This document shows, in pieces, positions 2,859 to 39,325 of a stretch of DNA of 64,000 nt; position 1 is the stretch's first letter; each line of letters opens with the position of its first letter. A program made the position numbers and the translations under genes. Source of the stretch: an uncultured Actinomycetes bacterium (GTDB taxonomy: Bacteria; Chloroflexota; Dormibacteria; Aeolococcales; Aeolococcaceae); the NCBI GenBank assembly GCA_964508345.1, contig CAZDTK010000001.1, positions 236,012-300,011 on the forward strand, read 5' to 3'. A model generated the notes under the pieces. That model had not been told where the DNA came from. It did not search any database and worked only from the letters and a program-made list of their open reading frames with translations.

Positions 2859-3530
2859 ATGGTGCGCTTCACTCACGTGGCATCCGCCGGAGCGGCGGCC
2901 CTGCTGCTGGTCGCATGCGGGACCTCGACGGGGCAGACCCCAACGGGGACACCCAGCTCCGCTGCCACCGCGACCGGCACCGCGATGCCGACGCCGACAC
3001 CATCGCCCCCACCGACGGCGACACCCACCACCGCCCCCATCAGCCTCTCCTGCCCCTCGGCGAGCGAGGTCAGCACCGACGCCGGGGGACCCTCGTTCAT
3101 TCTCCAGGGCGCGGGAGGCAACGCCAACGAGTTGGAGCCGAACGGCCCCCCGCCTGCTGCCCCGCTACCCAGTGACCTCGCGGTCGGCTCGTGCTCCTAC
3201 ACCAACGCGGACAACATCATCATCATCATCGTCCTGGCCACCGGCTTCCCGGCCGCGGACTTCAGCACCGCCGAGCAGGACGTCACCCATCCCGAGGGCT
3301 TTGGCACCCCCACCGGCACCCAGACCTTCATCCCGCAGAGCGGCCTGGGAGACCAGGCGGTCGCCTACAGCTACAGCATCACCCCCACTGCGACCAACAG
3401 CGTCAGTTACGAGGAGGGGACGATCGCGATCCAGGGAACCAACCTGGTGAGCGTGCAGGTGTTGGGGAGCGCCTACGTCCCGACGATCCCGCAGGTGGCC
3501 AACACCCTCACCGCGGCGCTCCTGACCTGA
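2859..3530 (+). CDS. lipoprotein (LVAC lipobox), Thr/Pro-rich linker, unknown function
   Basis: Internal ATG at 2859 preceded by a G-rich RBS (ggggggaagg); signal peptide MVRFTHVASAGAAALLLVACG with Cys lipobox; the upstream part of the 2643 ORF looks non-coding. Confidence 0.6.
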   Translation: MVRFTHVASAGAAALLLVACGTSTGQTPTGTPSSAATATGTAMPTPTPSPPPTATPTTAPISLSCPSASEVSTDAGGPSFILQGAGGNANELEPNGPPPAAPLPSDLAVGSCSYTNADNIIIIIVLATGFPAADFSTAEQDVTHPEGFGTPTGTQTFIPQSGLGDQAVAYSYSITPTATNSVSYEEGTIAIQGTNLVSVQVLGSAYVPTIPQVANTLTAALLT

Positions 3531-3838
3531 GCCTCGAGGGAGCGGCGCCTTCTGCGGGAGGTCGTAGCTGTGGTCATCACGCTGGCGGTCGCGCACAGCC
3601 TCCGACGGTCGGGGATGAGGCGGTCCGGGGGTGAGGCGTGGACCTGGGCAGATCGAGATTCTCTCTGCGGGTGTTCGCTGGTGATCCGGGTACGCGCACA
3701 GCAATCGCGACACGAGGGTGTTGTTGCTGAGATTGTTGCGTCCTGTAGAGGAGGCTCAATGACCTAGGACCAAAGGGCCCAAGTACCCTACGCACGTTCG
3801 GCTAGGGTGCTCCTCGGGACCCCGCCTCCGAGGAGAAC

Positions 3839-4694
3839 CATGTCGACAGTAGCGCGGACGTTCCAGGGGCGAGGCGCCGTCCAGGTGGATTCCCGGCTCG
3901 ACTCCAGCTCGGGAGACGTCGTGTGGGGAGAGAATCGGGTCGCCTCGTCCAAGCGTCTCGCGAGAGTGGCCGGGGTCCTCTACCTGCTGGTCGGCATCCT
4001 CGGCGGGTTTGCCGAGGGGTACGTGGAACCCAAGATGTACGTTGCCGGCCACGCGGCGGCCACCGCGGGCAACGTGGTCGCGAATGCCGGCCTGATGCGC
4101 ATCGGTGTGGTGGCAGACCTATTGGATGGGACGGTCTTCGTAATCCTCGCGATGGCCCTCTACATCCTGCTGAAGGACGTGCACAAGAGCGTGGCGAGAG
4201 GGATGCTGATCCTCGTCGCCCTGGCCGCCGGCATCACCTGCCTCAGCGCACTCTTCGAGTTCGAAGGGCTGCGGGTCGCAACCGGAGCCGTCAACGTGGC
4301 CGCCTTGGGTACTGCCGGTTCGAATGCTCTGGTGCTGCTCCTGTTGGACTCCCAGCACTATGGGTTGCTCATCGCTCAGATCTTCTTTGGACTGTGGCTG
4401 GCGCCGCTGGGGTACCTCGCTTACAAGTCGGGGCGGTTCCCCAAGGCATTGGCCATCCTGCTCGTCGCGGCGAGTGTCTCCTACCTGTTCGATATGCTCG
4501 CGGCGTTCCTCGTCCCCGGTTTTGACAAGTCGATTCATACCCTCGCCAGTATCGTGCCGGCGGTCGCGGAGACGTGGATGGTCGGCTACCTTCTCATCGT
4601 CGGGGTGAGGAGCACGAGTACCGCAGGCCTCGGCGACCACAGCTCGAATGTCGATGTAGGGGGCTCCAGGCCCTCCGCAGACACGACAGATTGA
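3839..4694 (+). CDS. DUF4386-like multi-pass membrane protein
   Basis: ATG at 3839 with RBS gaggagaacc; 6-7 predicted TM helices; sequence pattern typical of the DUF4386 family (recall-based). Confidence 0.6.
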
Positions 4695-4887
4695 CGCGAG
4701 GCGAGGGCCGCTCGACGGTGACGTAGCCCGAGCGGACCGCGCCTCCGGGCATCGTGCGGCTGGGCAGCCGAGATTCTCCGTGGGTCCGTCAGATTGATCC
4801 CGTGCCCGGCCACAACCTCTTCAGCACGGCTCTGCCAGGCAATAGACTCGGGACTGACCCGTCAACACTTGGACAGGAGGGCGAAGG

Positions 4888-5367
4888 GTGGCCCCAACCA
4901 ATAAGGCGAGCAAGAGCACACAGAAGCGTGCGACTCGCACCAGCGCGAGCGGCACGGCATCCGCGGGATTCAGCGCTGAGGAGAAGGCGGCCGCCCGCGA
5001 GCGTGTCCGGGAGCTCAAGGCCGAGGCGGCCAAGGCGGATGGGGAGACAGAGCTGCTTGCCGCCATCGCCAGGATGCAGGAGCCGGATCGCACGATTGCC
5101 GAGAGGGTCCACGAACTGATCACTGCCGCAGCCCCGGCTCTCACACCGAAAACGTGGTACGGAATGCCCGCATACGCCAAGGACGGCAATGTGATCTGCT
5201 TCTTCCAAAACGCGGGGAAGTTCAAGGTCAGATACCAAACGATCGGCTTCAGCGACAAGGCGAAGATCGACGACGGTGCCATGTGGCCGATTCAGTACGC
5301 ACTCAGCAACCTGACTGCCAAGGAAGAGGCCAAGATCACCGCGCTTGTGAAGAAAGCGGTGCGCTGA
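4888..5367 (+). CDS. DUF1801 (YdhG-like) domain protein
   Basis: 159 aa; Lys/Ala-rich N-terminus then a conserved WYGMPAY...GNVICFFQ block typical of DUF1801/YdhG. Confidence 0.65.
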   Translation: MAPTNKASKSTQKRATRTSASGTASAGFSAEEKAAARERVRELKAEAAKADGETELLAAIARMQEPDRTIAERVHELITAAAPALTPKTWYGMPAYAKDGNVICFFQNAGKFKVRYQTIGFSDKAKIDDGAMWPIQYALSNLTAKEEAKITALVKKAVR

Positions 5368-5397
5368 AGGCGTCGTCCGATGTGGCCGGTGCGAACG

Positions 5398-6036
5398 CTA
5401 TCCTGCCTTCGCGGGTGGCCCCTGCGGATAGACGGTCTCGCCGCGGACGAGCATCTCCACGAACTGTGCCACGCGGCGGGCACGCGTCTCGGGGCGCTGG
5501 GCGCTTCCGATCCGGTAGAGAATCGCATAGCGGTTTCGCGATGTGAGGCGATCGAACATCGCCTGGGCCGCCCGGTTCGCACGCAGCGCTGCCGCCAGGT
5601 CGTCGGGGATCTCGATATCCCGGCTGCCCGCGTACGCCGACTCCCAGCGGCCGTCGCCCCTGGCCTGCTCAATGGCGGCGAGGCCCGCTTCCTGCATCCG
5701 CCCCTCCACGATGAGCCACTCGGCGATTGTCACATTCCGTTTCGACCAGCGGCTGCGGGCACCACGTGGGGTGAAGCGCTGGCAGTAGGTCACCTCGTCG
5801 CGCCTTCTGAGCTGGCCGTCGATCCAGCCGTGGCAGAGGGCCTCCTCCAGGGCCTCGTCGTAGTTCAGTCGGGTGGGCTCCTTCGTGCCTTTCTTGGCGA
5901 GCACGAGCCAGACGCCGGCGGCCTCGGCCTGATGGCGGCGGAGCCAGGATCGCCACGCGTCAGCGTTCTCGACGATCAGCTCAGGCAGGTCAGTGGCCAC
6001 GGCTTGGGAGCTTAGCTTCGGCCACCTGCCAGGCAC
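5398..6036 (-). CDS. YdeI/OmpD-associated family protein
   Basis: 212 aa with motifs WRSWL, VWLV, CHGWIDG, RNRYAILYRI characteristic of the YdeI/bacteriocin-protection family. Confidence 0.65.
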   Translation of the reverse strand: MPGRWPKLSSQAVATDLPELIVENADAWRSWLRRHQAEAAGVWLVLAKKGTKEPTRLNYDEALEEALCHGWIDGQLRRRDEVTYCQRFTPRGARSRWSKRNVTIAEWLIVEGRMQEAGLAAIEQARGDGRWESAYAGSRDIEIPDDLAAALRANRAAQAMFDRLTSRNRYAILYRIGSAQRPETRARRVAQFVEMLVRGETVYPQGPPAKAG

Positions 6037-6214
6037 CCTTCTTCAGGGCAGCGCCAATGCGGTGACGGTTCAGTTTGAATCGGAAGGTCGCGCAGCGTCG
6101 GGGTGGGCTCTGAGGGCCATGCCAATTGAAAGAAGCACCCCCCACATTCCGAATAAGACTAGAACGACCCCGGGCCGGCTGCAAAGGCAGCCCTGGCATC
6201 GCCCGTAGGATCGA

Positions 6215-6604
6215 TCACTCCACGAGCCTCGAGGCATGGGCTCGATACACCTCACTCTTGGCTTCGCGCCTCTGCCCGCTGTCCAGGGTCTCGATCAATG
6301 AGAGGAGACGCTTGGTCAGAATGATCAAGTACCGCGTGTCCGGAGTCAGCGCCACGAAGGTGTGAGCCACGCCGGCCGGAACGAAGACCGTCGACCCCGC
6401 CGGTGCTTCCAGCTCGCGATCGGCGAGGCGGAACCTCAAAGCTCCGGCCAGTACGTGCCACGCCTCATCGTCCGCGAGGTGGACGTGGAGCTCCCTGGGC
6501 CCGCTCCCGGTCCACTCACGCACCGCGAAGGAGTCTCCGGTCGCCTCGATGGGAGTTGTCGGGTGCCCACCGATGGCATAGCTGACGGCGGGCGTCGTGG
6601 CCAT
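6215..6604 (-). CDS. cupin domain protein
   Basis: 129 aa; cupin-like motifs (HVHLADDEAWHVLAG ... VFVPAGVAHTF). Confidence 0.6.
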   Translation of the reverse strand: MATTPAVSYAIGGHPTTPIEATGDSFAVREWTGSGPRELHVHLADDEAWHVLAGALRFRLADRELEAPAGSTVFVPAGVAHTFVALTPDTRYLIILTKRLLSLIETLDSGQRREAKSEVYRAHASRLVE

Positions 6605-6722
6605 CTCGAAAGCACCCTACCACCGAGCGCAGGCCCACGCTGTCGCCTGATCGGCGGGGCGATGGCGTGCGCCGGTAGGCCGAGCTTCTCTATGTAGGCG
6701 CTGCCCTGATCTCAACTTGGTC

Positions 6723-7127
6723 TCACCGAGACACCACCATGAGGTGGCGGTGAGCCGCGTCAGGCCAGGCTGCGATCGGGTCCGCGGCCGAGTAGATCTC
6801 CAGGCTGCTGAGGTAGCCGTGATCCAGGAAGACGAGAATCCCACCAATCTCCCCGCCCCGGTCGTCGGTCACCCTGGCTTCTGCGGGGATGGGCGATTTG
6901 GAGGCCGGAGCTGGTGGCGCCCCTTGCGGGTCCACGTGGAGGTCGACCGTCGCGCAGCCGCACTCGCACCTACCGACCACGGTGGCGTGAGGTAGTTGCG
7001 ATCGCAGGTCCTGGGCGCCCGTGAACTCCATGCCGAGGAGCTCGGTGAGCACCTCAAGCTCAGTGGCGGTCAATGCCCGCTCGGGCACCTCGCGAGTCAA
7101 GACCTCAGAGCCTACACCGGCGCCCAC
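6723..7127 (-). CDS. hypothetical protein with a CxCxC cluster
   Basis: 134-aa ORF (GRCECGCATVDLHVD); no recognisable domain. Confidence 0.35.
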   Translation of the reverse strand: MGAGVGSEVLTREVPERALTATELEVLTELLGMEFTGAQDLRSQLPHATVVGRCECGCATVDLHVDPQGAPPAPASKSPIPAEARVTDDRGGEIGGILVFLDHGYLSSLEIYSAADPIAAWPDAAHRHLMVVSR

Positions 7128-22072: not shown

Positions 22073-22150
22073 GCGCCCATAGCTCAGTCCGGATAGAGCG
22101 TCTGACTACGGATCAGAAGGCCAGGGGTTCAAATCCTCTTGGGCGCGCCA
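22073..22150 (+). tRNA. tRNA-Arg (anticodon ACG)
   Basis: Cloverleaf folded by hand: acceptor GCGCCCA/TGGGCGC, D-arm GCTC-AGTCCGGATA-GAGC, anticodon arm TCTGA-CTACGGA-TCAGA (anticodon ACG), T-arm AGGGG-TTCAAAT-CCTCT, encoded CCA. Confidence 0.9.
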
Positions 22151-22866
22151 ATCGCTGGCCTTCGTCCGGTTGGTGGACGCGGGCCGTCAGGGCGGCTGGT
22201 GTGTCGTTCCACTGCGCCATAAGGCTGGGTGTGCCCGACGGCGCGCTTGCTTTGGTAGGAGGAGATCTCAGGTCGAGTTTGAGAGCGCCTCGACAAGACG
22301 TCTGATTCTGAGTTCAGACGCCACGTCTGCCTGATATCGGGGCCGCTCAAGCAGACGCTCCGACCTTCGTACCCCTGAACTATGAGCAGACGCTCCATGA
22401 GCGCGCTCGTTCGGAGCATCTAGGCGTCCAAGGTAAGCGGTCTGACCGTGGTGCCGGAGCCGTCCCCCCTCGAGCCCGGATCATCGTCTTGTTTGACGAC
22501 AAACGGGCGGGCGGTGCCTCTCGCAAGACCAGTGACGTGGCCGGGACCGTGGCACAGCAGCCTAGCCGTGATCGACCAGGTCCTAGCCTCACCTCACCCC
22601 CACCGGCGCCCGCGACGCGCGGCGCGCTCATGCGTTCGCTGCTGGCTGAGGGGCCGTGGTGATATCGAGCGCCTGGCGACCTCCTTGCCGTCGCTCAGCC
22701 CGCTGGTGGGAGTCGGCCGCCGATTTCCGGTAGCCCTCCCCCAATGCCTCGAGTGCGGAGTACCCTCAGTAACCACGTCAAAAGGCTCGCCCGGGGCTCC
22801 ATGGTCGGGGTTGAGGCGACCTTGCGAGTGCCTCCGATCAACCTCCACGCGCAGGTAGGTAGCCAC

Positions 22867-23496
22867 ATGTTACGCAGACGTGGCGCATGGCCAACACCCT
22901 CCTTCGAGCAGATCCGCAAACGGGCACGGATCCTCGTTATCGACGATCAGGCCTTTCCATACGAGGCGCTCTTCGCACGTGATGGCTATAGCCTAACGAA
23001 GGAGGACGACGTATCTAGCCTGTCCGATCTCGAGGACGGAGACTACGACCTAATTCTTCTGGATCTTCAAGGTGTCGGCTCGAAGGAGTCATCTGATGAA
23101 GGACTCGGAGTTCTCAGGCACCTGCGAGAAGTTCGTCCAGCGCAGATGGTCATTGCTTACTCTGAGGCAACATTCGGTTTGAAAGCGCAGCCCTTCTTCC
23201 GCCTCGCCGACGGAGTCCTTCAGAAGAGTGCTGACTACATTGCGTTCAAGGAGAAGGTTGATGAGCTGCTTCAATCACGATTCTCTGTCGGGTTTTACGT
23301 TGGGCGAATCGCCGTGGAGGCCGGCCTGGCCGGCAGAGAGAATGCTCGTTTGGCCGACCTGGCTCAGCGTGCAATCATCTCCGGCAGACCAGCGAAGCTC
23401 AGGGCCTTTCTCAAAGACAAGATCGACGACAAGACCATCCGTCGCATCCTGATTATCATTGAGGCCGCGCGCTTCGCGGCATCTGTGTGGAAGTAG
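22867..23496 (+). CDS. response-regulator receiver (REC) protein with a C-terminal ~95-aa domain of unknown function
   Basis: ATG 22867; RILVIDDQ ... DLILLDLQ (phospho-acceptor Asp context) ... conserved K in the REC fold; C-terminal helical region without a recognisable DNA-binding motif. Confidence 0.7.
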   Translation: MLRRRGAWPTPSFEQIRKRARILVIDDQAFPYEALFARDGYSLTKEDDVSSLSDLEDGDYDLILLDLQGVGSKESSDEGLGVLRHLREVRPAQMVIAYSEATFGLKAQPFFRLADGVLQKSADYIAFKEKVDELLQSRFSVGFYVGRIAVEAGLAGRENARLADLAQRAIISGRPAKLRAFLKDKIDDKTIRRILIIIEAARFAASVWK

Positions 23497-24680
23497 GGAT
23501 TCCCTTCTTTCCCCTCCCTCACGTCTATCAAGGGCGGAGGGGCGATGGACTTGACGCACCATGGCCACGGAAGTGCCTTGAATGTCGGGATCGAGAGTGC
23601 GAGCGCGGGGCAGTTGGTGCGCTCAGCACATGCAGGTTCGGCGTCAACTACATTAGGTTGTCTTCCGACCTCCTTGCCTTAGGCTTCGTGGTTACGGACC
23701 TCTCAGAGGCTAGCGTTTCTGACGCTCGCAGAAGAATGCTACGGGCTCCGGGCGTCAAACACTTGCGCCGGGTTCATGTGTTGTCAATCATTGAGCACTG
23801 GCCAGCGGTCGATGTGCAAGTGAAGCACGACGCATCTGCGCGGCTAATGGAGGAGCTCGAAGCCCTCCGTGGTTCGCGGGGATACGTCGAGTTGCTGTGT
23901 GGGCACCTCAAGAGCGAGATACAAACTGCCCTGGGCCAAGTTCACGACTACCGTCAGCTCGTCACACAGATCATCCAGAACATGAACGTCATCGCTGAAC
24001 GAGCGCATCCTAGTATGCCAGTGGACGAGTCGCTGCCGCTAATCGGCCATGAGGAGATGGCGATCTACCAGGCGGCGCGCCTCATGGAGCAGAAGCTTCA
24101 AGCAGCGCTGTTCTTCGTGCACCCGGAGAAGATCAATGACCCTGCCGATAGCGAGAATATCCGGATTCACGGACTAGTCATCAAGTACCGGAAGATCTAC
24201 TCTCATGCCTTCGATGCTAAGGGACTCCGGATAATCGAGACCGGTGAGAGCCTCGGAGGGATGTGGGGAAATGGGGACGCCCTTGGTGTAATTCCGCAGA
24301 CGTTCATTGATAACGCCTATAAGTACTCGCCGAGGGGAGAGCGCGTTGAGCTTAGTTTCCACGAGGACGAGCACTGGATCGAGTTCGTGGTCAGCTCGTT
24401 CGGACCGCGGATTGACGATGACGAGCGCCAGCGCATCTTCGAGCCGTTCTATCGAGGAAGAAACGCTACCGTTGGTACCGGCGAAGGCACGGGCTTTGGA
24501 CTAGCCCTCTCGCAGCTTGTGGCCGACCGATGTGGGGTGGAGATTACCTTCACTCAGAACCCACAGCGAGCAAGTGGCACTCTACTATGGACTTCGTTCA
24601 AGGCAAGATTCCCGCGATCTAGGCGGCCTCCCAGCCCGCCGATCCGGCCGCGAGATGGACGAATTCGCCGCAGCGCTTAG
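23487..24680 (+). CDS. cytoplasmic histidine-kinase-like protein: N-terminal Cys4 zinc-ribbon-like motif, degenerate H-box, HATPase_c domain
   Basis: GTG 23487 overlaps the REC stop by 10 nt (the first in-frame ATG is ~80 codons downstream). CLECRDRECERGAVGALSTC gives a C-x2-C-x4-C-x10-C spacing. N-box IDNAYKYSP, G1-like DDDERQRIFEPFYRG, G2 GTGEGTGFGLALS. A candidate H-box IGHEEMAIY sits ~90 aa before the N-box. No TM segments. Confidence 0.7.
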   Translation: MEVGIPFFPLPHVYQGRRGDGLDAPWPRKCLECRDRECERGAVGALSTCRFGVNYIRLSSDLLALGFVVTDLSEASVSDARRRMLRAPGVKHLRRVHVLSIIEHWPAVDVQVKHDASARLMEELEALRGSRGYVELLCGHLKSEIQTALGQVHDYRQLVTQIIQNMNVIAERAHPSMPVDESLPLIGHEEMAIYQAARLMEQKLQAALFFVHPEKINDPADSENIRIHGLVIKYRKIYSHAFDAKGLRIIETGESLGGMWGNGDALGVIPQTFIDNAYKYSPRGERVELSFHEDEHWIEFVVSSFGPRIDDDERQRIFEPFYRGRNATVGTGEGTGFGLALSQLVADRCGVEITFTQNPQRASGTLLWTSFKARFPRSRRPPSPPIRPRDGRIRRSA

Positions 24681-24775
24681 TCGCATACCCCGCGGAAGGG
24701 TACCTGAGCGAGGCGGTTACGGCTACCCCGCAGCGCACCGACCGGGCGCATACGTGCCAGATCGGGAACTTGGAC

Positions 24776-25348
24776 TCAAGTTCTCCGGGACTGACCCACA
24801 GCGTCGCGAACGCGCAATGCAGCCGACTCGGTGTCCTCGTGTTCCCAGACGCGCAGTGAGAGCCATCCACGCTGCGCCAGTAGGTCGTCAAGCTCCTTGT
24901 CTCTTCTTCGGTTGTACTCGATCTTGGCAAGCCAGTATTCGCGGTTAGTTCTTGGTGGCACGAAATGTCGGGGACACCCGTGAAAGAAGCAACCGTCAAG
25001 GAACACTGCGATGCGCAATCTAGGAAATACAATGTCGGCGGTGCGTCTGAGTTCGGGCAAGGGGCGCGCGTTCACCCGATACCGCAAGCCAAGTCGATGG
25101 AGCTCCGACCGCAGAGCTCTCTCGGGCGCCGTCCCGGAAGACACACAGGCGCGCATCGACCGCCGGGTTGACTCGGACTTTGCCCACGACCTACCACGGG
25201 TTACGAACGCGGGGAGGCGCGGGCTCCGCGGAACCGCGCCTCGCGGAGCGGCAAGACTGTTGGGGTCATCGTCGTCGTTCACGGGGCTGGCCGCGCGTTC
25301 AGGACCCGCTGCGGTCGTGAACGGTCGAAGGTGTGGGCCGTGAACCAT
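24776..25348 (-). CDS. vsr: very-short-patch repair endonuclease
   Basis: Vsr motifs: SESTRRSMRA..., DIVFPRLRIAVFLDGCFFHGC, EYWLAKIEYNRRRD; the N-terminal 45 aa of the ORF may be non-coding (true start possibly internal). Confidence 0.85.
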   Translation of the reverse strand: MVHGPHLRPFTTAAGPERAASPVNDDDDPNSLAAPRGAVPRSPRLPAFVTRGRSWAKSESTRRSMRACVSSGTAPERALRSELHRLGLRYRVNARPLPELRRTADIVFPRLRIAVFLDGCFFHGCPRHFVPPRTNREYWLAKIEYNRRRDKELDDLLAQRGWLSLRVWEHEDTESAALRVRDAVGQSRRT

Positions 25349-25708
25349 TCGGGGTCATCGCCACCCAGTTTGCGGCCGGCGGCGTGCCGATGACAATCAC
25401 TCGTCGCGCGGCTTCGGGGCCATCTGAACCGGCCTCTCCCCCTGCCGCCACGGGACGCTCTGTATTTCGTCGAGGTCGATCGGGTCCCGCCCATTTCGGT
25501 CAACTGCGGGGCGGCGCCACCGACCCAAGGCCCTCACACTTGGCTGACTTAGCACGTTTGCAGCGCTCCGTGGTGCGGTCTATGCGGTCTGACGGCGCTT
25601 GACCAATCATGTATTTCTCACGCTGCTTACTCCACATCCCAAGCCACTCGAGCCGACGCCCTCCCGTGGGGTCGCACATCCGTTCAGGCGCTGATAAGAT
25701 GGTGGCCG

Positions 25709-27055
25709 ATGCTCAGGCAGGCCTGCACCCAACGCCCAGCTCCGCTGCGACGACCTTCCGTGGTGTCACTGTTCACCGGCGCTGGCGGGCTTGACATCGG
25801 TTTGGAGCAGGCCGGGTTCCGCATTGTCGCAGCGACAGACTGTGATCGCGACTGCATCCACACACTTCGCCACAACCAGCTCTCCTCCATTTCGATTCCT
25901 GGACAACGAGGGCGCAAGTACCTACACGGCACAAAGATCATCGAGGCGGACATCCGCACTGTGCATCCGTCCGAGCTACTCGCGAACGACGCCGATCTGT
26001 TCTGGGCTCCTGATCTCTTGTGTGGCGGCCCACCCTGTCAGCCTTTCAGTTCAGCTGGAAACATGAAAGCACTGAGTGATCCTCGAGGCCGACTCTTCGA
26101 GCACTTCGTTCGCATCGCGGACGCCTTGCGACCACGGTATATTCTCTTCGAGAATGTCCGCGGGCTGGTCACAGCGATAGGTCCGAAAGGTATCCCCGGA
26201 GAGGCGATCGCTCTTGTCCGTGAGGCATTCGAAGACATTGGCTACGCCACGACTTTCGCTCTGCTAAACGCAGCCGATTACGGCGTCCCGCAGCGACGCG
26301 TCCGCTGTTTCATGCTCGGGACGAGAGCCGGACATCTACCCGACTTCCCACGGCCGACGCATACGGCTGCGCCTCTCCGAGCCGATCGAGCAGGCCTCAA
26401 GCCACACGTCACTCTCCACAAGTTTCTCGCTCGCTTTCCTGTGGTCGAGGACTCTGAGATAGCTCGGCCGTCGCCTAGCCTAGCTGAGCAGCTCGCGTCG
26501 CTTCCCCCTGGTTCGGGGATCAAGAGCGCCGGAGCTCGGGAGGCAACTCGTCCGGGTGGCCACTGGGGCTACAAGCAGGGTACGTTCGTTGCGGACCCCC
26601 AACTGCCCGCCAGAACGGTCACAGCCGCAACCAGCCAGGACTGGATCCGCATGCCAGATAGCTCGCTGAGGAGGCTTTCGCTTCGAGAGGTGGCCGGCCT
26701 TCAAGGCTTTCCCAGTCAGTGGGAGTTTGTTGGAGGCAGCGCGAGCCGATTCCGGCAGGTGGGAAACGCTGTGCCGGTGGCTTTTGGTCGTGTCTTGGGC
26801 GAGGCGATTTTGAGCACGCTGAATCGCCCCCAGCCGGTTGAGGCCCCCGTGTCAAGGCCGTTTCCGGCCGCGTTCACGGAGTCCATCAACTACACAATTC
26901 GCGAGCACCGGGCCAACAAGGCGAGTCGGGACCGCGTCAGAGAGTTGACGCGTGTTGGCCACGCCGTGACGGACATCAAGGGACTTGGCGCGCAGGACGG
27001 CCACCGTCACCGCGAAGCCTCGGTTACCCTCCCCTTGTGGTCGTCGGAGATGTGA
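25709..27055 (+). CDS. dcm: DNA (cytosine-5)-methyltransferase with an ~80-aa C-terminal extension
   Basis: Motif I FTGAGGLDIG, motif IV GGPPCQPFS, ENV, QRRVR, motif X GNAVP; divergent from vsr across a 360-bp gap. Confidence 0.9.
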   Translation: MLRQACTQRPAPLRRPSVVSLFTGAGGLDIGLEQAGFRIVAATDCDRDCIHTLRHNQLSSISIPGQRGRKYLHGTKIIEADIRTVHPSELLANDADLFWAPDLLCGGPPCQPFSSAGNMKALSDPRGRLFEHFVRIADALRPRYILFENVRGLVTAIGPKGIPGEAIALVREAFEDIGYATTFALLNAADYGVPQRRVRCFMLGTRAGHLPDFPRPTHTAAPLRADRAGLKPHVTLHKFLARFPVVEDSEIARPSPSLAEQLASLPPGSGIKSAGAREATRPGGHWGYKQGTFVADPQLPARTVTAATSQDWIRMPDSSLRRLSLREVAGLQGFPSQWEFVGGSASRFRQVGNAVPVAFGRVLGEAILSTLNRPQPVEAPVSRPFPAAFTESINYTIREHRANKASRDRVRELTRVGHAVTDIKGLGAQDGHRHREASVTLPLWSSEM

Positions 27056-27133
27056 GTTTCGGATCCCAAGCGCTGACAGTGTTGTCGTCAAGGAAGAGGC
27101 GATCACCCTCGGGAACGGTGATGACCTCGAGGC

Positions 27134-28315
27134 ATGATGGTTGACGAATTAGATTCCGAGGAACCAGAAGAGGGCGCGGGCGAGGGGGCGTTCCTTGAAG
27201 CTACGGCAACCGACTCAGCTACGGACCCCAAGAACTGGGGCGCTCTTGCTGAAGCTCTTAAGGGGACCGCGAAAGACTTCACGGCTAGGATGAAGCGAGA
27301 GTCCAAAGCCCTAGAGACGCTCCGCGCGTGCGAAGGCCTCGATCGAGGAGAAAGCAAGCGACTCCGGCGTCTCCAGGACTTAGCGCAACAGGGCCTTGAC
27401 TCCATGTTGTACTCGGACGGTTCGCGCCGGCGCCGGCGGTTTAACCTCCCTGCCCTAGCCGACTACAAACTCGTTATCGCATTCGTTCGGTATGGGGCAA
27501 GGGCCGCGCTGAAGGTGGCCTCACCGAGAGCGGGTGACTTCCTGAACAACCAGCTGAGGGGTCAGTGGGCTGAGCGTGTGGTTCTGTCGCTGACGCGGCG
27601 GCTCGATGACATCGTCTTCGTTCCGTTCGGCCCTTCGAGCGCGGCGATGCCAGGCGATGACCGATACCGCGAATTAACGGCCGCTTATCGAGAGATCGTG
27701 CTGGTGGAGGGGAAGCGACCCGACCTTCTGGCCTTCGATGGGGCTGTGTGGAGCGGCCTCGCCCCGGGCGACATCCGGCGAACGGAGAGTTGGCCGGAAC
27801 GGCTTCTTGTTGAAGAGGACATGGCGATAGTGAGACGGGGGATGTGTGGGGCTGAGGTTAAGTGCAGCACATGGCATTACGCAAAGAGACGAGAAGCGGG
27901 AGGATCGCCACTTGCGGTCACTGCTAAAGAGGAGGAACTTGCAGACTTCGAGCACTGGGAGAGAGAGACTGGCTTGCCAGTGGTATTCTTCCAGGTGCTC
28001 TTTGACGAGATCTACTGCATGAGCTTCGCGCGCATGCTTGCGGCAATTGACCGCGGGTTTCTTTACACGAGTGGGGATTACGTGCTGGATCGACAAACGG
28101 GAGGGGGGGGAAAGGTATTCCACCGGTTCAAGTTAGTAGATTTCAAGCATCTTTTCGGATCGGTGGTTTTTCCGAACGACTCACGCGGGGTAATTCGCGT
28201 GCTGCAGGATGGGAGCGTGGTACCGTTCTTGGAGTACCTGCCTGCAGAGGCGGAGGTGTTGAGTGAGTCAATCTTCCGAGAGGAGGTTGGATTCCGTCAC
28301 GCGACCTCGCCGTGA
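27134..28315 (+). CDS. hypothetical protein, candidate PD-(D/E)xK restriction endonuclease partner of Dcm
   Basis: 393 aa immediately downstream of dcm on the same strand; acidic N-terminus; candidate nuclease motif RPD ... AEVKC; no confident family assignment. Confidence 0.45.
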   Translation: MMVDELDSEEPEEGAGEGAFLEATATDSATDPKNWGALAEALKGTAKDFTARMKRESKALETLRACEGLDRGESKRLRRLQDLAQQGLDSMLYSDGSRRRRRFNLPALADYKLVIAFVRYGARAALKVASPRAGDFLNNQLRGQWAERVVLSLTRRLDDIVFVPFGPSSAAMPGDDRYRELTAAYREIVLVEGKRPDLLAFDGAVWSGLAPGDIRRTESWPERLLVEEDMAIVRRGMCGAEVKCSTWHYAKRREAGGSPLAVTAKEEELADFEHWERETGLPVVFFQVLFDEIYCMSFARMLAAIDRGFLYTSGDYVLDRQTGGGGKVFHRFKLVDFKHLFGSVVFPNDSRGVIRVLQDGSVVPFLEYLPAEAEVLSESIFREEVGFRHATSP

Positions 28316-28806
28316 CTTGCCTTCCTGCAGATCTGGAGCTCTCCAGAAACCCCGGGGAGGTGGACCAGATTGCGAATCTCTGGATTCTGGCGCGAGGGAC
28401 GAACTGCAACATGAGCGCGAAGGATCCGAACAAGTTCTTCCGGGATGTCGAGGACAATACTCTTAGACATGCCGCGATTGAACGCTCACCTCTGACCTAT
28501 CACGGGTTTGAGTCGTTCGTTGACGTGTGGCAAGAGGCGCTCAAGGAACGGCTAAGCGAGCGCTTGGGCTTGTCGGCGGAGGATCTCCGTACCCTCTCCA
28601 GTCCGATAACTCGAGCGATGCCATGGGGAGCGTGCTCGGGATCCGCGCGTAGGTTAGAGGCCGTGACTCGCAAGCAAGCTGGTCTGATCGCGTCGCTCAC
28701 GTATTGCAAGAGTAGGCGGTGCGAGGCAGGACGAGAGGAGCTCCGCGATTATGATCAGGATTCAGCCACGGGGGAGTTGGGTAACAGGTTCCTCTACTGC
28801 TGTTAG
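28312..28806 (+). CDS. hypothetical Cys-rich protein translationally coupled to the upstream ORF
   Basis: GTG 28312 overlaps the upstream TGA (GTGA); 164 aa; C-terminal Cys cluster (YCKSRRCE...LYCC); no homology recognised. Confidence 0.45.
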   Translation: MTCLPADLELSRNPGEVDQIANLWILARGTNCNMSAKDPNKFFRDVEDNTLRHAAIERSPLTYHGFESFVDVWQEALKERLSERLGLSAEDLRTLSSPITRAMPWGACSGSARRLEAVTRKQAGLIASLTYCKSRRCEAGREELRDYDQDSATGELGNRFLYCC

Positions 28807-29558
28807 TGGCCGGACCGCCTGTCTTGCATTGCGTGGATTAGGATGCCCGCGATAAGGGTAATGACGGTGAGAGAGACAGTCCAAGAAATGAGGACCGGGC
28901 GAGAGAAACCGCGTGTGGCAGCCAGGTAGACCCACCATCCCTTGGCGAAGAGAAGCGCAGCCACGGCGCCGAACACTATCAAGATCCAGTGGCCTGCGGC
29001 TGCGAGTTGGACAGTTGAGGGCGCAGCATGTGGACGGGTTGTCGTTCTCCGGCGGGTGTGGATTCCTCGTTGCCAGGCCATCGGCGCGCCGTCCGAATCG
29101 GCGAGCACCGAGGCGTACTGGAGGACGGCCACGGAGAGGGCCAGAGAGACCGCCACCGCGATCACCGGTTGTTGACTAGCAGTCATCGCTGCACCGACCT
29201 CCACTGCGACGATTAGTAGGGGCGCCAGCACTTCAAGGAGCCCTCTGAGCGCTTGCTCGTAGTATTCGACCATCAGGAGCAGCGCCCCGAGGAAGCCGGC
29301 TCCGACGCTGGCGATCTGCCAACTGGTCCCCCACGTCGGTGGGGTCCCAAGGCCTAGCACACGGCGTGGCACTGGGAGGACGTAACTCTCCACGGCGATG
29401 GTGATCGAGAGCATGGCGAGCAGCACCATAAACTCGCGGAGCCGCCGTCGGCGTCTGGCCGCGATCTCTGTCTGCTCCAGCCGTTCCAGGGAAGTCCCGA
29501 GCCGGACTCGGAGCACGACGGGATTGGTTCGGCGGCTCTTGTCGGGCTCCTGGCTCAT
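28803..29558 (-). CDS. multi-pass membrane protein, unknown function
   Basis: 251 aa with 5-6 hydrophobic helices; tail-to-tail overlap with the preceding ORF; lies at the distal edge of the island. Confidence 0.5.
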   Translation of the reverse strand: MSQEPDKSRRTNPVVLRVRLGTSLERLEQTEIAARRRRRLREFMVLLAMLSITIAVESYVLPVPRRVLGLGTPPTWGTSWQIASVGAGFLGALLLMVEYYEQALRGLLEVLAPLLIVAVEVGAAMTASQQPVIAVAVSLALSVAVLQYASVLADSDGAPMAWQRGIHTRRRTTTRPHAAPSTVQLAAAGHWILIVFGAVAALLFAKGWWVYLAATRGFSRPVLISWTVSLTVITLIAGILIHAMQDRRSGH

Positions 29559-29913
29559 GTCACCACAGGAGCAGAAATCGGGCTGCCTCGGCAGCGGCTC
29601 GGCCGGTCTGGCTGCTTAGGCGCGCTTCCGTGCCATGTGTAGTTGGAAGGCGAGAATCCCATCGTCACGACCAGTACGTTAGGCCTTCCGCACCGGTGCT
29701 TCGACCCCGCTACACAGTCGTAACGCACGCCAGTCCGACCGGGACAAGCCAGAGTGAGGCAGCGACCGCGTCCACCTCGCGGACTGGCGGCTGATTAGCG
29801 GCAGCGCGAGACAGTCCCGCTGCGCGCCCACTACTGCCGGATTCCGCCAGCCGGCGGCGTCGGGCGCCGCTGCCGACGGAGGTGCCCGCAGCCGACGAAG
29901 CGGCGATGCGCTT

Positions 29914-37696: not shown

Positions 37697-39325
37697 ATGG
37701 CGACAGAGGCCCGGCCGGGTAGCCGGCTGTTCGTTCGCAACAGCACGGGGTTGGTGCGCTCCGCCTCGGCGCTCGACGCGACCATCTTCAACGCGGTCAT
37801 CTCGGCACCCATCGGGTCCACCCTGGCCTGGTCGATCTTCTTCACCCTGGTCGCCTTCCCGGGGGCTGACCCGATCGGCGTGCTGCTCATCACCCTGATC
37901 ATCAACATCCCGGTGTTGATCATGTTCGCCCTGCTGGGAGCGAGCATGCCCAGGGTCGGAGGTGACTACGTCTGGGTGAGCCGCGTTCTCACCCCACCGT
38001 TGGCCCTGATCTCCAACCTCTGCATGATCATGGGCGGGCTGCTGGGAGCCGCCTACTTCGCGAAGTTCTTCGCGGTCTTTGCGGCGGGGCCGGCGCTGGT
38101 GGCGTTCGGCACCCTGTTCACCAACAGCACCCTGATCAGCTGGGGCTCCTCCTTCGAGACCAACACCAGCTGGATCCTGGGTGCGTCGCTCTTCATGGTC
38201 GTGCTGGTGACCGCCATCCTCATCCGGGGGACGAAGGCGACCTTCCGCGCGCAGAACTGGGCCTTCCTGATCGGCATGATCGGGATGGTGGTGGCCTTCA
38301 TCTGCCTGGGCGTGGTCAGCCAGCACACCTTCTTCTCCAACTTCGACACCCTGAACAAGAGCTTCGGCGGCGGGACCGTCCAGCAGGTGATCGCGGCCGC
38401 GGGCGCTCAGCACGCGGCTCCCAACCTGGGCAACCTGAACGCCACCCTGCCCGCGCTCTTCTCGGTCGAAGGTTTCATGATGTGGAACTTCTGGTCGGTG
38501 TACATGTCGGGGGAGCTGAAGAGCGCCTCCAACCGCACCCGCCAGCTGACCGTCATGTTCGGCGCGCTGGTCTTCGACGTCGTGCTCCTCATCCTGGGCG
38601 CCTTCGTCCTCTTCCACACCGCCGGCTACAACTTCGTCTACGCGCTCAACGCCGCCCCCCACAACTACGCGATCCCCTCGGGGCCCTTCTACTCCTTCCT
38701 GGCGGCGCTGGCCTTCAACACCCCGGTGCTCACGATCATCATCCTGGGCTGCTTCCTCTTCTGGAGCCTGCCGTCGATGATCGCCAACACCTTCATGCCC
38801 ATCCGGTCGTTCTTCGCCTGGTCGTTCGACCGGCTGATGCCGGAGGGGCTGGCCACGGTCAACGAGCGCACCCACTCCCCGATCAACGCGATCCTGGTGG
38901 CCAACGCGATCATCGCGGCGCTCACCATCTGGAGCGTGTACTCCAACGTCTTCCAGCTCGTGCTGGGACTTATCGTCCTGGCCGGCTGCCTGGCGGTGGT
39001 GATCGTCGCCGTGGCGGCGATCGCGCTGCCGTTCCGGCGTCCCGAGCTGTACAAGGCCTCCCCGGCCAACGTGAACTTCCTGGGGATCCCGGTGCTCTGG
39101 ATCGTCGCCCCGCTCTCCATCATCGTCTTCGTGGTGCTGGCGATCGTCTCCACCCACTACCCGGCGCTGGTGATGAACGGGAACTCTGCGGACTGGTGGT
39201 GGATTCCGGCCTGGTTCGGCGGCCTCATCGTCGGTGGGTGCCTGCTCTACTACGTGCCGAAGTTCATCCGCGCCCGGCAGGGCATCAACGTCAGCTTCGT
39301 TTACAAGGAACTGCCGCCCGAGTAG
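37697..39325 (+). CDS. APC-superfamily amino-acid/polyamine/organocation permease
   Basis: 542 aa, ~12 TM helices, GGDYVWVSR motif; RBS GGAGGG; divergent from the DeoR regulator. Confidence 0.85.
   Translation: MATEARPGSRLFVRNSTGLVRSASALDATIFNAVISAPIGSTLAWSIFFTLVAFPGADPIGVLLITLIINIPVLIMFALLGASMPRVGGDYVWVSRVLTPPLALISNLCMIMGGLLGAAYFAKFFAVFAAGPALVAFGTLFTNSTLISWGSSFETNTSWILGASLFMVVLVTAILIRGTKATFRAQNWAFLIGMIGMVVAFICLGVVSQHTFFSNFDTLNKSFGGGTVQQVIAAAGAQHAAPNLGNLNATLPALFSVEGFMMWNFWSVYMSGELKSASNRTRQLTVMFGALVFDVVLLILGAFVLFHTAGYNFVYALNAAPHNYAIPSGPFYSFLAALAFNTPVLTIIILGCFLFWSLPSMIANTFMPIRSFFAWSFDRLMPEGLATVNERTHSPINAILVANAIIAALTIWSVYSNVFQLVLGLIVLAGCLAVVIVAVAAIALPFRRPELYKASPANVNFLGIPVLWIVAPLSIIVFVVLAIVSTHYPALVMNGNSADWWWIPAWFGGLIVGGCLLYYVPKFIRARQGINVSFVYKELPPE

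Follow-up and report, generated by a model that had tools for sequence, protein, structure and literature searches.

The locus at positions 24,776 to 28,806 of the stretch analysed here, a 64,000-nucleotide (nt) segment of contig CAZDTK010000001.1 from an uncultured bacterium (the window), reads as a type II restriction-modification (R-M) system that was acquired by horizontal transfer and is accompanied by a vsr gene (R-M-V), in which a predicted restriction endonuclease (REase, or R) of the AccI family is joined by a C5-cytosine methyltransferase (MTase, or M) and by a homologue of the mismatch endonuclease Vsr (V). A fourth open reading frame (ORF), predicted to encode 164 amino acids (aa), appears to be the stranded tail of a GmrSD/BrxU-type gene and to lie outside this machine. 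We put the probability of this reading at about 85%. All four ORFs, which a first-pass annotation had singled out from the sequence, were found again at the same coordinates (Table 1) and in the arrangement described there: the vsr and MTase genes are divergent and separated by 360 base pairs (bp), the REase gene starts 78 nt after the MTase stop codon on the same strand, and the GTG of the 164-aa ORF overlaps the TGA of the REase gene (gccGTGActt).

A predicted AccI-family endonuclease and its partners

The 393-aa protein matches the Pfam profile RE_AccI (PF09545) with 46.6 bits against a gathering threshold of 22 (E = 3e-12), and every one of 38 aligned relatives matches the same profile when scanned singly (best E = 9e-15). 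The family is also given in the precomputed annotation of all 58 database homologues (40-59% identity), and residues 260-305 match positions 237-282 of the 366 positions of the PADLOC type II model REase_II. The relatives are 340-370 aa long, and the RE_AccI model has 366 positions. The first-pass annotation could not place the protein in any named REase family and raised the prospect of a new one; since the protein passes the PF09545 threshold, as do all 38 of the relatives, that suggestion is not supported. Nonetheless, some features weigh against too close an assignment. The RE_AccI match is partial and comes in two stretches, of which the better pairs residues 132-247 with profile positions 34-143 of 366, and the precomputed PF09545 matches on the relatives are flagged as weak or faint. 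Placed as it is by the Pfam profile and not by direct comparison with AccI, the protein reads as a divergent branch of the AccI family, not as a close relative of AccI itself.

The residues that are invariant in the alignment of 38 homologues are E147, the motif E192-x-K-R-P-D197, and E241-V-K243. The window protein keeps every residue that is invariant in the family, and measured against its homologues the ORF is full length. A confident AlphaFold model (predicted local distance difference test, pLDDT, 88.6) contains a PD-(D/E)xK nuclease core, with the elements in the order alpha-beta-beta-beta-alpha-beta, an Asp at the start of one strand and the (D/E)xK in the next. We predict that the protein is a PD-(D/E)xK type II restriction endonuclease with E147, D197, E241 and K243 as its catalytic residues. 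The RPD...AEVKC stretch that the first-pass annotation had read as a nuclease signature is real, as D197 and E241-V-K243 are invariant across the 38 homologues, but the acidic N-terminus cited together with it is not part of the signature; residues 1-33 are unconserved in the alignment and disordered in the model. NCBI, JGI and ENA carry a 392-aa form of the protein that begins at the second ATG (27137), labelled 'hypothetical protein' by JGI and unnamed by NCBI. The beta-rich C-terminal part of the model (residues ~316-375) is probably a DNA-recognition subdomain. Foldseek returns faint YTH matches to this part, at a probability of 0.2-0.4 and with template modelling (TM) scores of 0.12-0.16, which are not significant.

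The clade to which the REase belongs is rare, with about 60 clusters at 90% identity among 5.8 billion, mainly from Planctomycetota-type metagenome-assembled genomes and soil metagenomes; a profile search with the 38-homologue alignment recovered the same ~60 clusters and nothing beyond them. A tblastn search with the REase gave no match in plasmid and phage collections, a PDB search was also empty, and a literature search on AccI, its methylase and PF09545 found nothing relevant.

The genomic neighbourhoods of the relatives bear on what the REase works with. We collected 13 independent non-self loci whose flanks were long enough to show adjacent genes, drawn from species-representative genomes and from the contigs of nine distant homologues, and searched 12 non-self R-orthologue loci by tblastn for the MTase, Vsr, the 164-aa ORF and the two genes upstream of vsr. 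A PF00145 MTase gene adjoins the REase gene in all 13 loci. These MTases are orthologous to that of the window, with 56-61% identity in 11 of the 12 loci searched and 42% in the other (L014), and Vsr homologues (46-56% identity) occur in six of the 12. Because the MTase adjoins R without exception, which is a type II signature, R and M read as an obligate pair and R-M-V as a frequent mobile triad, and R and M are predicted to share a specificity. An REase gene lacking an adjacent MTase gene, which the first-pass annotation had named as grounds for giving up the REase assignment, was seen in none of the 13 loci, so that the assignment stands; likewise its proposal of a complete type II R-M system is borne out, with a Vsr in attendance, by an orthologous C5-MTase gene beside R in every relative with room for one. 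The gene order varies elsewhere: V may lie between convergent R and M, be divergent from M as it is here, or occupy the middle of an M->V->R series. In these other loci the neighbours of the module include integrases, a resolvase, an IS1-like transposase and phage-like genes.

In some relatives a small HTH_3/HTH_31 (C-protein-like) gene lies directly upstream of the REase gene or overlaps it (L016, 4164-4418; L013, 4712-5190; and a third locus, with genes at 3851-4099 and 4096-5199). The window has no such helix-turn-helix (HTH) controller gene and instead carries M and R in tandem. We also note that the ENA gene callers missed vsr and the 164-aa ORF and gave the methylase as 134 aa on one contig whose DNA is 100% identical to the window (regions concerned: L001, 7544-8573 and 11179-11667; L002, 6055-6459). 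These missed and shortened gene calls are annotation artefacts, not mutations.

Judged by its sequence, the MTase appears intact as a C5-cytosine methyltransferase, with scores of 196.6 bits against PF00145 (cutoff 22), 175.2 against TIGR00675 (cutoff 100.65) and 262 against the PADLOC model MTase_II, and its motifs I (FTGAGGLD), IV (GGPPCQPFS), VI (ENV), VIII (QRRVR) and X (GNAVPV) align to those of M.HaeIII (1DCT). The catalytic motifs are invariant across four aligned orthologues, in which the target recognition domain is also highly conserved. The E. coli-type Dcm model NF007772 gives 32 bits, far under its cutoff of 710. The C-terminal extension of ~80 aa noted in the first-pass annotation is genuine: the Pfam match stops at residue 368 of 448, and the remainder (369-448) is conserved in the four aligned orthologues, with the alignment reaching residue ~430. 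The conserved residues of the extension are S382, P386, Y395-T396, E399, N403, S406-R407 and K424-G425-x-G427, in the pattern S..PFP...YT.RE...N..SR...KGLG. An insertion between motifs I and IV (residues ~57-73; LSSISIPGQRGRKYLHG) is shared in part by the orthologues.

Vsr similarly appears, by its sequence, to be an intact T:G mismatch endonuclease. It scores 118.2 bits against TIGR00632 (cutoff 97.85), matches PF03852 and the PADLOC Vsr model, and aligns to the E. coli Vsr structure 1CW0 (E = 3e-13) as well as to 1VSR and 1ODG. The catalytic Asp is retained (TADIVF, with ADIV facing PDFV in 1CW0), as is the His/Cys block (GCFFH for GCFWH). The conserved core spans residues ~56-172, and because homology begins only near residue 56 the true start of the gene may be the GTG at 25282.

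The 164-aa reading frame and alternative readings of the locus

The first-pass annotation proposed that the 164-aa ORF encodes a second subunit or a specificity or regulatory partner of the REase, a role that is not supported, given the absence of any tblastn homologue from all 12 R-orthologue loci and a homology confined to the tail of GmrSD/BrxU enzymes, without their catalytic motif. The ORF matches the PADLOC model HEC-05 at positions 514-595 of 600 (E = 4e-6). HEC-05 is BrxU, which depends for defence on the DH(I/Y)P residues of its His-Me finger, a motif that is essential in HEC-06 as well (bioRxiv 10.1101/2024.01.29.577857). When 1.84 billion cluster representatives were searched exhaustively with phmmer, 24 relatives were found, all of which match residues ~12-97 only, and no full-length homologue; the long relatives (451-575 aa), type IV restriction enzymes with GmrSD_N (DUF262, PF03235) and GmrSD_C (DUF1524, PF07510) domains, match at their extreme C-terminus and end ~5-20 residues past the last aligned position. 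The alignment begins just past the DHIFP motif of these proteins and takes in an N-x-W-x-L...N-x-N-x-S stretch and the terminal helices, both of which are kept in the ORF. The DUF1524 motif (D/E)H(I/Y)xP is itself absent, the residues upstream being AVTCLP, without a His. No extension of the ORF at its N-terminus is possible, since a stop codon closes the frame 15 codons ahead of the GTG, and no DUF262-like or other part of a GmrSD gene is present anywhere in the window.

The last ~65 residues of the ORF match nothing, and they hold five of its seven Cys (positions 3, 32, 108, 132, 137, 163 and 164); the C-terminal Cys cluster pointed out by the first-pass annotation is therefore present as described, but it lies in a part that has no homologues. 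The ORF gives no Pfam match even at E <= 10, no NCBIfam match and no HTH match, a word-indexed search finds only 99-100% identical copies of it, and the ENA gene callers do not call it. These similarities suggest that the ORF is most likely the 3′ remnant of a GmrSD/BrxU-type type IV restriction gene and not a subunit. The most economical reading of the sequence is that the remnant was cut short where the R-M-V cassette ends on the right, within ~40 nt of the stop codon of the REase gene, and that its frame stays open by chance into formerly non-coding sequence; the remnant would then be non-functional. Because the ORF is read as a truncated remnant, the GTGA overlap would be an accident of the junction and not a sign of translational coupling. 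We also considered whether a programmed frameshift might join R to the 164-aa ORF and rejected the idea, as the junction has no slippery sequence and the R orthologues share the end point of R, with none extended beyond it.

Several observations weigh against this reading and lend some credit to a small functional protein whose translation would be coupled to that of R and which would serve as a subunit, specificity factor or regulator. The overlap with R is real, the first half of the ORF has a coding-like GC content by codon position (0.60/0.40/0.67), and residues ~31-100 are modelled by AlphaFold2 as a compact helical unit with pLDDT values of 71-93. Some of the database matches are also short proteins, which together with the compact model makes a small stand-alone protein conceivable. 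In addition, the analysis turned up no sister genome in which a GmrSD gene stands intact at this position, and a search of metagenome contigs for related islands, made through the histidine-kinase-like (HK-like) protein encoded upstream, recovered none with an ancestral intact gene; we therefore infer the order of events at the junction. The enzymatic activities of R and M are likewise predictions from sequence and model. Against coupling, however, none of the 12 other R-orthologue loci has the ORF or an equivalent small downstream gene, homology is confined to the tail of GmrSD-type enzymes, and no purine-rich Shine-Dalgarno sequence precedes the GTG. The Cys-rich half has no homologue, a pLDDT of 43-67 and a codon-position GC content (0.55/0.59/0.67) that is not coding-like, and the model as a whole has no structural match in the PDB. 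All near-identical copies of the island retain the whole ORF, but these are 99-100% identical, so that its intactness says nothing about selection. We consider a functional small partner of R highly improbable.

Two further alternatives concern what R does and with what it acts. That the 393-aa protein is a decayed, solitary or modification-dependent nuclease, leaving in effect an orphan Dcm/Vsr pair, draws on the predicted nature of its activity, on the faint YTH-like matches, which might suggest a reader of modified bases, and on the existence of Dcm/Vsr pairs without an REase in E. coli and in the discussion of Caulobacter (PMC12907096). We find this hardly credible, given the full-length ORF with its complete set of invariant residues, the low TM scores of the YTH matches, and the strict linkage in 13 of 13 loci to an orthologous MTase that diverges along with R, as expected of a cognate type II pair. 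A larger system that unites R-M-V with the pair of genes upstream of vsr (22744-24680) is very unlikely. The two genes overlap one another, directly adjoin vsr in the same low-GC island and match a PADLOC candidate defence system (PDC-M43A, 2e-18; PDC-M43B, 1e-8), and pairs of response-regulator-like and HK-like proteins resembling two-component systems (Response_reg_2/HEF_HK) are enriched beside type II R-M systems, C5-MTases and Vsr (PMC8011034). But the only Pfam match of the pair is that of the 397-aa protein to HATPase_c (PF02518), and neither PF19192 nor PF19191, the families introduced by that study, is matched at E <= 10. Homologues of both proteins are missing from all 12 R-M(-V) orthologue loci, where the module is evidently self-sufficient, and co-location in defence islands is common without functional coupling. 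As the pair lacks PF19192 and PF19191 and has no homologue beside R-M-V elsewhere, we regard it as a separate element that shares a small defence island with the module and retain the stand-alone R-M-V module as the preferred reading.

A low-GC island and a proposed mode of action

The module sits in an island (~22150-29800) with a GC content of 57-64%, against ~72% in its flanks, which begins directly 3′ of a tRNA-Arg(ACG) gene. The GC content at third codon positions (GC3) is ~0.95 in the flanking host genes and ~0.65-0.73 in the island genes. Because GC and GC3 are low relative to the host genes on both sides, the composition points to horizontal acquisition of the island. It holds the PDC-M43-like pair, the R-M-V module, the GmrSD remnant and a 251-aa membrane-type ORF; it has no integrase gene, and a search for att-like direct repeats of the 3′ end of the tRNA found none. 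The island is bracketed almost exactly by an imperfect 19-nt inverted repeat (22164-22182 and 29766-29784, 84% complementary). The 251-aa ORF is convergent with the 164-aa ORF, overlaps it by 4 nt at its end and is intermediate in GC content; no Pfam, NCBIfam or PADLOC family matches it. Elsewhere in the window, positions 3000-7000 and 38000-39000 have a GC content of 0.65-0.67 against a background of ~0.72 and could be further acquired segments.

Table 1. Features of the R-M-V locus and the surrounding island (positions are those of the window)
Feature	Position	Strand	Description
tRNA-Arg(ACG)	22073-22150		directly 5′ of the low-GC island
REC-like protein	22744-23496	(+)	250 aa; PADLOC PDC-M43A
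GHKL-ATPase/histidine-kinase-like protein	23487-24680	(+)	397 aa; PADLOC PDC-M43B; HATPase_c
vsr ORF	24776-25348	(-)	190 aa, maximal ORF
Divergent vsr/MTase intergenic region	25349-25708		360 bp
C5-MTase (M)	25709-27055	(+)	448 aa; PF00145, TIGR00675, PADLOC MTase_II
AccI-family REase (R), predicted	27134-28315	(+)	393 aa; PF09545; PD-(D/E)xK fold
164-aa ORF	28312-28806	(+)	homologous part ~28345-28602; probable GmrSD/BrxU-type (DUF262-DUF1524) 3′ remnant with an unconserved, Cys-containing read-on
Membrane-type ORF	28803-29558	(-)	251 aa; hydrophobic; 64% GC

The region between vsr and the MTase gene presumably carries the promoters for both transcription units. It contains no match to the sigma-70 consensus, which is uninformative for a high-GC host, and promoter and terminator scans gave background levels only.

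The mode of action that we propose takes its catalytic and repair steps from established knowledge of type II R-M systems and very-short-patch repair. M would methylate a cytosine within a specific recognition sequence on the host DNA, and R, as a Mg2+-dependent PD-(D/E)xK endonuclease, would cleave the same sequence when it is unmethylated and so restrict incoming phage or plasmid DNA. Vsr would nick 5′ of the T in T:G mismatches that arise by deamination of 5-methylcytosine (m5C), starting very-short-patch repair; this would offset the mutational cost of m5C and limit C-to-T hotspots. As M precedes R on the same strand across a gap of 78 nt, and no controller protein is encoded, synthesis of M before or together with R probably protects the host while the module becomes established. 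The 5′ 80-85% of a GmrSD/BrxU-type modification-dependent gene would have been lost at the junction on the right of the cassette.

The specificity probably differs from that of AccI, because the partner is a C5-cytosine MTase in every locus seen, whereas M.AccI is an adenine methylase. The cassette contains no GTMKAC site where roughly three would be expected, on a rough estimate. Palindrome avoidance in 56 kb of host sequence stays at the level of noise, with |z| < 3 for all 6-mers. That the clade might be HgiDII-like, with GTCGAC as its site and m5C modification, was considered and finds no support: GTCGAC is only mildly under-represented (z = -2.0), and HgiDII is listed as a separate singleton (PMC2441816).

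In practical terms, a hypothetical protein can now be named as a predicted AccI-family type II REase with its C5-MTase and Vsr, and the presumed new subunit can be set aside as a probable gene fragment; beyond annotation, the significance of this is small. The AccI family, listed under 'unknown superfamily' in a 2008 classification of type II enzymes (PMC2441816), gains a PD-(D/E)xK model and a set of predicted catalytic residues, which is a small addition, and the rare clade is a candidate source of new m5C-sensitive specificities. That a GmrSD remnant borders directly on an m5C R-M cassette may be a small example of turnover in a defence island, and perhaps of conflict. A more specific scenario joins two claims: that the m5C R-M-V cassette replaced the 5′ four-fifths of a resident BrxU/GmrSD gene through a conflict between methylation and type IV restriction, and that the C5-linked AccI clade has a new specificity. 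We regard the two together as unlikely. Were the conflict real, the resident type IV enzyme could have attacked the newly methylated chromosome, and its replacement would have removed the incompatibility. More remote is the possibility that the stranded GmrSD tail is still translated by way of the GTGA overlap and keeps a residual role, for example as a dimerisation-interfering peptide.

Comparison with known systems

Residues ~12-97 of the 164-aa ORF align to the last ~80 residues of GmrSD/BrxU enzymes, past the His-Me finger histidine, but the DUF262 nucleoside triphosphatase domain, the linker and the DH(I/Y)P motif are all lacking. The ORF is 164 aa long in place of 450-600 aa, and it ends in an unrelated tail of ~65 aa. 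Judged by this alignment it is a fragment and not a member of the GmrSD/BrxU group.

The pairing of a C5-MTase with vsr recalls the Dcm/Vsr pair of E. coli, with whose Vsr structures (1CW0, 1VSR and 1ODG) the core of the window protein aligns. In E. coli, however, dcm and vsr share a strand, overlap and have no REase, whereas in the window the two genes are divergent and an REase gene follows that of the MTase. The first-pass description of a classic Dcm/Vsr arrangement is thus only loosely apt: a C5-MTase gene does stand beside vsr, but in divergent orientation and with a predicted cognate REase present.

The prototype AccI is a type IIP enzyme that cuts GT^MKAC. The window protein resembles its family in scoring above the PF09545 threshold, in its similar length and in being a single-chain REase encoded beside its methylase. 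It differs in that the partner in this clade is always a C5-cytosine MTase, often with a Vsr, and in that the profile match is partial.

Close parallels in organization are the known R-M-V systems, HpaII, XorII and those of the Neisseria NgoAXIII type. The window shares with them the clustering of a C5-MTase, an REase and a Vsr homologue, the last presumably repairing T:G mismatches at the methylated site; its REase belongs to another family. Vsr and V genes are discussed in PMC6116569 and PMC8011034. As an R-M-V system the window clade is variable in gene order, and its Vsr is facultative (6 of 12 loci). What the locus encodes is an ordinary type II R-M-V system of a known kind, with an REase from a known family.

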